From Promethearchaeota archaeon (GTDB taxonomy: Archaea; Asgardarchaeota; Lokiarchaeia; Sigyniarchaeales; SOKP01): 64,000 nucleotides of DNA. The stretch covers positions 1 to 64,000 of the forward strand of contig JAEOTA010000085.1 of NCBI GenBank assembly GCA_016840085.1, written 5' to 3'. The translations under genes and the position numbers were made by a program. The notes below the pieces were generated by a model. The model was not told the origin of the DNA. It was given only the letters and a program-made list of their open reading frames with translations, and did not search any database. This document shows, piece by piece, positions 11,315-13,413 of this stretch (the stretch's first letter is position 1; the number at the start of each line of letters is the position of its first letter).

Positions 11315-11929
11315 TTATAAGTTCTTTGATTTTCCTTTTAAATCGAAATCAGCTATAACACCACTTCTATTTACAAATTCCCAAGTTTTGCCGAAGTCAC
11401 TATATTTCCAAAAGTGGGTATTACAGATTTTAAGATCTGAAAGGAACATACCAAAAAGAGAATTTTCAAGTCTTTGAGGATTTTTACCATCGAGTCCTTG
11501 AGTATAAGATAATTTCATTTCACCATAAGGCATTGTAATATGAAATGTATTTCCCTCTTGTTCTAAATTAATATCGACATATTTTATTCCCAAAACTTTT
11601 CTTAGAAGTATACTTCCAGGGATATTGTTAGCAAAATAAGGTTCTAAATATTTTCTCTGTTCTTCAGTAGTTTTATCACTTATATAGACCCCCCCTTCTC
11701 CGCCTTTAGTCATGACATCCATAGCTTTATTAGAATATAAATCAACTACGTTGATTGCCAGCACCCCGCTGATATCCACGTCCCCTATTTTCCCCTCATC
11801 GATTTGGAATAATTGAAATGATTTACAAGGTTCTTCTCGATCTCTTCCGAAATAAAATGAGCAATGACCCTCAGATGCGCATGCTTCATACCACACTCCC
11901 TTTGTACTCCAATTAATTCTTTCTGACAT
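11315..11929 (-). CDS. DUF1326-like protein
   Basis: W..KG.WYEAC....C N-terminus, IDEGKIGDVDISG, YISDKTTEEQR pattern. Confidence 0.7.
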   Translation of the reverse strand: MSERINWSTKGVWYEACASEGHCSFYFGRDREEPCKSFQLFQIDEGKIGDVDISGVLAINVVDLYSNKAMDVMTKGGEGGVYISDKTTEEQRKYLEPYFANNIPGSILLRKVLGIKYVDINLEQEGNTFHITMPYGEMKLSYTQGLDGKNPQRLENSLFGMFLSDLKICNTHFWKYSDFGKTWEFVNRSGVIADFDLKGKSKNL

Positions 11930-12145
11930 TAGTTTTCACCATTCTTTATTTTAAATTTTAATATTTATTTATCAATTTTGATAGCTTAGTATTTTAATTT
12001 TGTCATTCTTGTATTTAAAAAAATAATATCTTTCCACGAATTTTGATTCCAACGAAAAGAATCTGTAATGTTTATTAAGCGACAAAAAAGTCATAATAAC
12101 CCCTTAACAGTTTAATTTAAATAGATTTCCTTCAAATCATACATT

Positions 12146-12490
12146 GTTCATATCTTACGGTATGAACGTCGAGAAGAGGTATTGTTTACCTCATTGTATT
12201 ACAACCATCGGTTGATCAGCAACGATATGAAAAGAGGTTGTGTGTAAAAGCACAATTTGAACTAAAAAGTAAGCCATACGGTTTATATTCGGTGTTCAAT
12301 ACGGCTAATTCGCAAGAATTAGTGAGATTATCTTACGGTAATATATTCCATAGGATATAAATTTATTCAATGGATTATGATTCTTTTCACGACGTAGCTT
12401 GAATTAATACATTGAGTTTTCCTTGCTCCAAGTAAGGAAACGCAGTACCACGCAAGGAACACCTCTGGTATTCTTTGCATCTTCTCGTCC
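12146..12490 (+). ncRNA. putative large structured non-coding RNA (unassigned family)
   Basis: About ten consecutive hairpins with G-U pairs on the + strand, a GCAA GNRA tetraloop, long-range CGAGAAGA(12170-77)/TCTTCTCG(12480-87) pairing, TATA-like TTTAAATA at 12116-23, no ORF. Confidence 0.7.
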
Positions 12491-12525
12491 CTTCTTTATC
12501 TTTAAATAAATCATAAAGATTGAAT

Positions 12526-13413
12526 TCAAGTATTATTGAATTCATCACCTTTTACTCCCCAATTTCTAAGAATTTCCTCAGCATTTATAATAATATTCTG
12601 TATGAATTCTTTAATCGTAGTTTCCTCATTAACATGTCCAACTGCCATTGAACCAATAGCAGAATCTCTTAACTCAAGGTGGAAAATCTTTTTGTAAAAT
12701 TTTTCATCAAATATGTCTTGGTTCAATACTTGACTTTTCCATACTTCTGGAGCAGGACTTTCCTTCGTTGCCATTATCGCACTCCCAAAACATACGGCAT
12801 CAGCACCCATCGCTAACGCCGCAAGAAACCCTCTTGCATCACCAATCCCCCCTGCTGCGATAAGTGGCACCTTTAACAATTTTCTTGCCATAGTCATGTT
12901 GACAAGAGTGGTATTCTGATTCGGATTTTTAAATCCCGTTCCTTCAAGACCTACAATAGTCACTCCATCTGCACCGGCTTTTTCAGCAGATATTGCATGC
13001 TTTACTGTTGCACATTTATGAAACCATACACCTCCTGCATCATGTATTTTCCTTCCGAGTTCAGCTGCTTTGTAAGCTGATGTAGTATATACTTTAACAC
13101 CTGCATCGAGAGCAATATCTAAAAAATCAAAATAAGATTCTTCTGTTCTATCTCTACCAGTAGTGCTTCTCACTTGCGGAGGCCATACCGTGAAATTAAC
13201 TCCATAAGGTTTATTTGTTAGTTTTTTCATTTTTTCAATTTCTTTGTGAAATCCCTCAGAAGTCCCAAAATTTAAAGCAGTTACTATACCTAGCCCCCCT
13301 GCTTCTGAAAAGGCTGCAGCGAATTCAGCTCTCCCTATTATTGCAAAAGCTCCCATTATAATTGGGTATTGAAGACCATTTATCATTTCTGTTATTCTTG
13401 TTTTCCAAATCAT
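12526..13413 (-). CDS. nitronate monooxygenase / FabK-like flavoprotein
   Basis: YPIIMG, SEAGGLG, KPYGVN, PLIAAGGIGDARG, ALAMGADAV. Confidence 0.88.
   Translation of the reverse strand: MIWKTRITEMINGLQYPIIMGAFAIIGRAEFAAAFSEAGGLGIVTALNFGTSEGFHKEIEKMKKLTNKPYGVNFTVWPPQVRSTTGRDRTEESYFDFLDIALDAGVKVYTTSAYKAAELGRKIHDAGGVWFHKCATVKHAISAEKAGADGVTIVGLEGTGFKNPNQNTTLVNMTMARKLLKVPLIAAGGIGDARGFLAALAMGADAVCFGSAIMATKESPAPEVWKSQVLNQDIFDEKFYKKIFHLELRDSAIGSMAVGHVNEETTIKEFIQNIIINAEEILRNWGVKGDEFNNT

Follow-up and report, generated by a model that had tools for sequence, protein, structure and literature searches.

A large orphan structured RNA with a dedicated promoter and variable apical domains in one family of Promethearchaeia

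To our knowledge, large structured RNAs without a known job are rare, and those that have been described are mostly bacterial. The raiA motif RNA, whose function is unknown, contains two core pseudoknots, and its subtypes differ in the number and make-up of their peripheral stems while the closing stem P1 is strongly conserved (PMC12968392). ROOL, GOLLD and OLE measure ~600–800 nt. Pseudoknots and kissing loops are features of both ROOL and GOLLD; ROOL, which is often borne by phages near tRNA islands, can equal 16S rRNA in abundance and was non-essential in one strain (PMC12286853). The bacterial Y RNAs (YrlA/Yrn1) carry the motif GNCGAAN0-1G in their 5′ stem (PMC4201824). Here we compare these systems with an RNA element of ~345 nt in a 64,000-nt stretch of Promethearchaeota DNA (the window), for which an earlier note, made from the letters of this DNA, had proposed an independently transcribed RNA of many hairpins.

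The element occupies a gap of ~600 bp without genes, as that note had it; the gap lies between a DUF1326 gene (11315–11929, minus strand), from which it is divergent, and a nitronate-monooxygenase-like (NMO) gene (12526–13413, minus strand), with which it is convergent. It is present as a single copy in its own genome, and its G+C content is 36% vs 29.5% for the genome. The plus strand of 12116–12490 folds with a predicted energy of −120.3 kcal/mol and a z score of −9.36, vs −4.17 for the minus strand, in agreement with the fold and the strand that had been claimed, and the plus strand also gave the stronger z score in all eight homologues tested (230–350-nt classes; plus-strand z of −5.6 to −12.5). 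We regard it as almost certain that a structured RNA gene resides here. (A 17-nt direct repeat, 11939–11955 and 12489–12505, 82% alike, flanks the entire intergenic unit; it could not be made out in L011, the nearest relative, and is therefore probably terminator-like sequence.)

The RNA has a promoter of its own, all parts of which lie on the plus strand. The TATA-like box pointed out previously, TTTAAATA, is at 12116–12123, 22 nt 5′ of the 5′ hairpin, and its spacing to P1, the helix that closes the core RNA, is conserved, being 52 nt in nearly all members of the family, 73–74 nt in those with an extra leader hairpin, and 31 nt in those that have no leader. In 67 family promoters this TATA box is preceded, at fixed spacing, by two CGACWWAAA boxes ~30 bp apart and two TAATA boxes. 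In the window, box 1 (12049–12059; consensus CCGACWWAAAA, here a CAAC variant) is ~65 nt 5′ of the TATA box and marks the 5′ limit of the conserved unit, with a core that is 81–96% conserved per position across the 67 promoters; box 2, CGACAAAAAA (12080–12089), is a direct repeat of box 1 positioned ~30 bp, or three turns, downstream; and the two TAATA-type boxes (12094–12110), ~11 bp or about one helical turn apart, lie directly 5′ of the TATA box. The first TAATA box is 96–99% conserved in the 67 promoters, which were selected partly by means of the second. This composite promoter, with ~75 bp conserved, is unique in the genome (38.1 bits with a position weight matrix vs 16.8 for the next match), and a search of this genome for a promoter-sharing regulon gave no convincing second site. 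From the TATA spacing we infer that transcription starts at G12146. At the other end, the pyrimidine tract that had been seen to follow the element is present at 12489–12500; this tail is C/T-rich in 67 of 67 members and is a probable archaeal terminator.

A structure of 108 base pairs, derived from 32 related window-type sequences, is 92.3% paired over those same sequences, and 42 of its 108 pairs show compensatory change, figures that lean high because the structure and the test share one set of sequences and because these are related, so that the number of independent events is overstated. None of 500 shuffles matched the real pairing, and slid controls reached 36–45%. The covariation bears out the earlier suggestion that selection acts on the RNA. 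Starting from the 5′ end of the plus-strand transcript, a leader hairpin, P0 (12146–12167; 93% paired, three compensatory pairs), precedes the core RNA (12168–12489), which is closed by P1 (12168–12176 with 12481–12489; 98% paired), a helix whose letters, GAGAAG/CUUCUC, are invariant. P1 leads to a junction with P2 and P12, and a second junction joins P3 and P11. The 5′ strands of the long-range helices P2 and P3 are in 12178–12201, with partners at ~12443–12449 for P2 (96% paired, four compensatory pairs) and 12405–12416 for P3 (93%, three); both have a pair probability of 1.0 and show clear G-C/A-U swaps. Above them, the apical ‘Y’ domain (12202–12395) is made up of the P4 hairpin, P5 (12222–12235 with 12382–12395) and a multiway junction with P6–P10, its helices being 89–99% paired each. 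The P11 side hairpin (12418–12440) sits at the P2/P3 junction, and P12, the 3′ hairpin (12452–12478), is at the P1/P2 junction and present in every size class of the family; invariant letters concentrate in P1/P2 and in this 3′ hairpin throughout the size classes. P0 is missing in L014 and L029 and larger in the class with 73-nt spacing, and in a natural 304-nt variant (L052:1588-1891) P11 is absent and P2 is rearranged.

The loops are of kinds that recur among relatives. GNRA loops are kept at P4 (25 of 32 sequences), P8 (24 of 32) and P10 (26 of 32), and at P0 and P9 there are conserved tetraloops that end in AC and are closed by a C-G pair. Neither a pseudoknot nor a kissing loop emerged when the 32 related sequences were scanned for mutual information, a signal that relatedness dominates; the scan left one pair, 12302–12379, 97% canonical, unexplained. 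We rejected a pseudoknot of the P0 loop, all six pairs of which were found in only 11 of 44 cases (four of six in the window), and which would disrupt P0 and P2.

Most of the helices drawn in the earlier note persist in homologues. The 5′ hairpin, the closing helix, GTTGTGT/GCACAAT, TTGAAC/GTTCAA with its inner hairpin, the hairpin with a GCAA loop and ATTATC/GGTAAT are 91–99% paired, and the hairpin with a CCA loop is 74% paired, in a register that varies. Other proposed helices have a probability of 0.0 in the full RNA: ATCG.GTTG/CAAC.GAT (47% paired), where the true hairpin is CAACC/GGTTG at 12202–12214; TCAATG/CATTGA (70% paired), the arms of which are 37 nt apart and not 17, and of which CATTGA actually pairs long-range with 12190–12201; and TACCA/TGGTA (76% paired). 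GAGGTA/TACCTC is likewise displaced by P2 and P3 in the full RNA (0.0), but is predicted to form in transcripts that end before ~12420 (0.93–1.0), so that this hairpin would be at most a folding intermediate.

To determine the range of the RNA we used BLAST together with two covariance models, one of the short-type structure (R1) and one of the promoter and leader (R2). BLAST recovered full-length homologues of 72–91% identity in the same genus. Within one family of Promethearchaeia (Lokiarchaeia), the promoter-and-leader model matched 57 of 134 other genomes, with carriers making up 36 of 53, 20 of 42 and one of six genomes in three genera and none in ten other genera, and it matched 0 of 125 Asgard genomes sampled outside the family; the model of the short-form structure gave an agreeing distribution. 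A metagenome scan added ~25 more loci, and the records in which homologues occur are titled as Promethearchaeota or Promethearchaeia MAGs. Among the genomes searched, the RNA appears to be restricted to this one family. (Loci L102, L104, L120, L125–L127 and L129 carry the RNA in records titled Hodarchaeota, Hermodarchaeota or Thorarchaeota; these are probably mislabelled, as at least two match genomes that GTDB puts in the genus of the window.)

The members of the family differ greatly in what they carry on a common base. By core length the members form classes of 209, 230–246, 283 to ~350, 633–638 and 704–714 nt, and the promoter, P1, P2, P3 and P12 are common to all. In short forms, Y is replaced by an ‘X’ domain that has three or four hairpins and UUCG caps and shows no detectable sequence similarity to Y; the ~635-nt forms hold X and Y nested inside one frame; and the ~710-nt forms consist of three diverged tandem units, each preceded by a P0-like hairpin. 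The X and Y types are each present in both main genera. None of the examined carriers had both an intact short X gene and an intact Y gene, and in G099 X is intact and Y decayed. Since no genome searched keeps both short types intact, X and Y are probably functional substitutes. Two further observations concern duplication. Over 18 nt, the 5′ strands of P1/P2 (12171–12188) and P5/P6 (12229–12246) agree at 78%, a likeness that may be due to chance or may mean that the Y domain arose as a nested copy of the base. At L043:989-1857 (G025:C76) there are two complete, diverged short-form copies in tandem, each with a promoter.

The gene occurs in at least six different neighbourhoods, where the downstream genes are mostly convergent and no neighbour gene is conserved. 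The X and triple types mostly sit behind a family B DNA polymerase gene (polB); a functional link to polB was rejected, polB sites being empty in this and other genomes. Five genomes that are 95–100% complete gave no credible match with either model, and in four of these the usual loci are intact yet empty. Clean empty sites are found at polB and at the c1–c3 locus, and decayed copies in G109, G099, G026 and L120. Empty sites and decayed copies together indicate, at the level of the genomes compared, that the gene can be dispensed with and undergoes birth and death. The changing neighbourhoods, the patchy presence, the empty sites, the relics and the tandem duplicates in G025 could also be taken as marks of a non-autonomous selfish or mobile DNA cassette, that is, a promoter and a structured transcript that hop between intergenic sites and whose fold aids their own persistence. 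We consider this improbable, however, because nearly all carriers have one copy, and two loci at most; because no transposase, reverse transcriptase or integrase was present among the recurrent neighbours tested; and because there are neither terminal inverted repeats nor an evident target duplication, features whose lack, along with the single copy, also led us to reject a MITE. No copy of the cassette was found in the collections of phages, plasmids and viruses that we searched (BLAST of phages and plasmids gave no match, and of four pattern matches in viral contigs none was homologous). Moreover, the conserved unit includes ~95 bp upstream that are not transcribed, so any movement would have been at the DNA level and not as a retroposed copy.

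The RNA also occurs in RNA libraries. Sixteen runs recorded as RNA contain small parts of the window stretch, and contigs from four metatranscriptome studies together cover 12163–12487. One 339-nt RNA contig spans 12173–12487 at ~95% identity, one mangrove contig runs on across the long-form junction into the sequence of a 635-nt form, and in one wetland run the summed word depth is several thousand per bin. These contigs are assembled and belong to relatives; strand, ends and level cannot be read from them, and DNA may be included. (That contigs do not cover the flanking genes was left out of the evidence, since relatives have other neighbours.) Together with the conserved promoter spacing and the names of the Promethearchaeota records, the contigs support the earlier proposal of an independently transcribed, uncatalogued Asgard RNA. 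No RNA contig extends into 12146–12162, and seven end at 12163–12173, near the P0/P1 border; the leader may be removed at this border, although assembly breaks can produce the same ends.

Cutting at such hairpins is the premise of a second alternative, namely a decoy or antitoxin-type RNA, units of which would be cut from a precursor at P0-type hairpins and would each neutralise a host nuclease or toxin. The ~710-nt forms, with a P0-like hairpin before each unit, are consistent with this idea, as are the optional nature of P0 and a promoter that looks inducible. But no conserved toxin or nuclease gene lies alongside, and neither a bulge-helix-bulge nor a tRNA-like motif for processing was found conserved in the 67 members (a bulge-helix-bulge at the ends had its best position in five of 67 only), and we think a decoy very doubtful.

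Comparison with known RNAs yielded no relative. Rfam gave no match for the window or for eight loci of several size classes, from the gathering score to E ≤ 10, and the covariance models of Rfam 15, those of raiA, ROOL, GOLLD and OLE included, gave none either. There is no conserved ORF, the longest ORFs ranging from 13 to 80 codons across 67 members, and a literature search that covered few subscription journals retrieved no description of this RNA family. We regard the family as uncatalogued and its kind as that of a large orphan structured RNA. As had been claimed, signatures of RNase P RNA, SRP RNA, tRNA and group I/II introns were not matched. RNase P RNA nevertheless deserves a closer look as the source of a degenerate paralogue (some other ribozyme being included in this alternative): the size, the paired ends and the order P1-P2-[domain]-hairpin-P2′-hairpin-P1′ are loosely like it, and the genome already has tandem RNase P RNA copies. 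By contrast, every catalytic-core feature tested is absent from the window family. The archaeal model (RF00373) does not match, nor does any Rfam model at E ≤ 10; the CR-I pattern is found in 0 of 67 members; there is no P4 pseudoknot and no P3-type hairpin; and the genome's own RNase P RNA is on another contig, with 130 bits, all of which makes such a paralogue highly unlikely. (The tandem copies, at L036:1501-2157, that is, G000:C66:15325-15981 on the minus strand, score 130 and 90.8 bits, both over the Rfam cut-off, and the upstream copy appears degenerate at its 3′ end.)

Other housekeeping and regulatory RNAs were rejected on similar grounds. For archaeal SRP RNA (RF01857) there was no model match, and the SRP54-binding motif of helix 8 occurs in 0 of 67 members; for tRNA and tmRNA, ARAGORN found none in the element, which has no 3′ CCA. 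Bacterial Y RNAs also have paired 5′ and 3′ ends, and the 5′ strand in the window starts GUCGA, near their motif; the tRNA-like domain, however, is absent from the window family, the motif itself is present in one of 67 members, and Ro60 (TROVE) was found in 0 of 135 genomes of the family, with positive controls. Two observations on the genome itself may be added. L038 (G000:C88:61763-61874, minus strand) matches SRP RNA with 35.6 bits vs a Rfam cut-off of 96.5, over the S domain only, and appears to be a divergent SRP RNA; and ARAGORN found only 13 tRNA candidates in this 98.8% complete genome, in which the missing tRNAs may be unassembled or have unusual introns.

The earlier note had favoured a protein-titrating or scaffold RNA on account of repeated C(U/A)UACG loops. 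This genome does contain an exact 12-mer repeat, TATCTTACGGTA being present in two copies (12151 and 12329), where 0.01 would be expected. TACGG does occur four times in the element (12156, 12277, 12300 and 12334), but the copy at 12300 is in a linker and not in a loop. Among 67 members only one, that of the window, has at least two C(U/A)UACG motifs, and loops vary freely: in 32 same-type homologues one of the three loops is mostly UAAC (22 of 32), another most often AAAC (14 of 32), and the third takes 17 different sequences, UUAC being found in just four of 32 and one of 32, and X types are capped by UUCG. The loop repeat thus appears to be a peculiarity of this genome. No short loop motif is both repeated and conserved across homologues, as in a CsrB-type protein sponge, and despite the tendency of the P0 and P9 loops to end in AC, a sponge that titrates protein through repeated loops is largely refuted and has, in our view, next to no chance of being right. 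The other half of the suggestion, a scaffold RNA, is still plausible, its basis being not the loops but the fixed base, the swappable periphery and the conserved GNRA loops. We hold it equally far-fetched that the element is a base-pairing guide or antisense RNA, or a leader or trailer that regulates a neighbour gene in cis, for although its tail is 37 nt from the stop of the convergent NMO gene, nearly all of it is paired and no unpaired stretch longer than ~11 nt is conserved, box C (as for a box C/D guide RNA) is present in one of 67 members, and neighbours and orientation vary.

The reading we prefer, which we would expect to prove right about half the time, is that of a non-essential RNA, regulated and abundant, which serves as a scaffold or packs with itself and is recognised through its base. 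Action by shape is suggested by an invariant base, a top that is replaceable yet tightly folded, and loops of a tertiary type, and by the lack of any conserved single-stranded guide, ORF, or catalytic or guide motif. According to this model, an activator bound to the two CGAC and two TAATA boxes would, under some condition, turn on strong transcription from G12146. The transient 5′ hairpin would form first, and the RNA would then fold into a rod. The base of the rod, with its P1/P2/P12 and P2/P3/P11 three-way junctions, would serve as the conserved element for recognition and stability, and would most likely dock a protein (our search for a partner protein of the RNA found none). The apical domain, Y in the window and X, X+X′+Y or three tandem units in relatives, would form a compact body with GNRA or UUCG caps, in which shape and bulk count above sequence, as in a scaffold or self-associating RNA. 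A bolder and unlikely version is a plug-in RNA, in which unrelated folded domains are swapped, nested or arrayed on a fixed base that docks a protein or the RNA itself, the leader is cut off, and the product is assembled into a higher-order particle. If true, the particle would represent the Asgard equivalent of the RNA nanocages of bacteria, or else a ribonucleoprotein of a new class.

These results suggest that the non-coding RNA genes of Asgard archaea are not all housekeeping genes but include regulated ones. The natural variants, among them a minimal core of 209 nt, forms with one or the other of two interchangeable domains, nested and triple forms, and genomes whose sites are empty, amount to deletion and swap tests already performed by nature, and should be useful for asking what large RNAs do and how RNA domains evolve. 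Because the gene is confined to a few genera and is dispensable, it would have little bearing on the origin of eukaryotes unless a conserved partner turns up.

Returning to the described systems, the window RNA resembles raiA in being a stand-alone structured RNA of similar size with variable peripheral stems and a conserved P1; it differs in that there is no sequence or Rfam similarity, and in that the window family belongs to archaea and has apical domains that are exchanged as wholes, or units arrayed in tandem. With ROOL, GOLLD and OLE it shares its large size, its multiple junctions and its patchy distribution, and possibly an RNA-only packing through A-minor contacts, whereas the window family measures 230–730 nt, was not found on viral contigs, and has no homology to these RNAs and no detected kissing loop. 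Judged by analogy, the window RNA most likely works in the manner of raiA and of ROOL, GOLLD and OLE, though unrelated to them.
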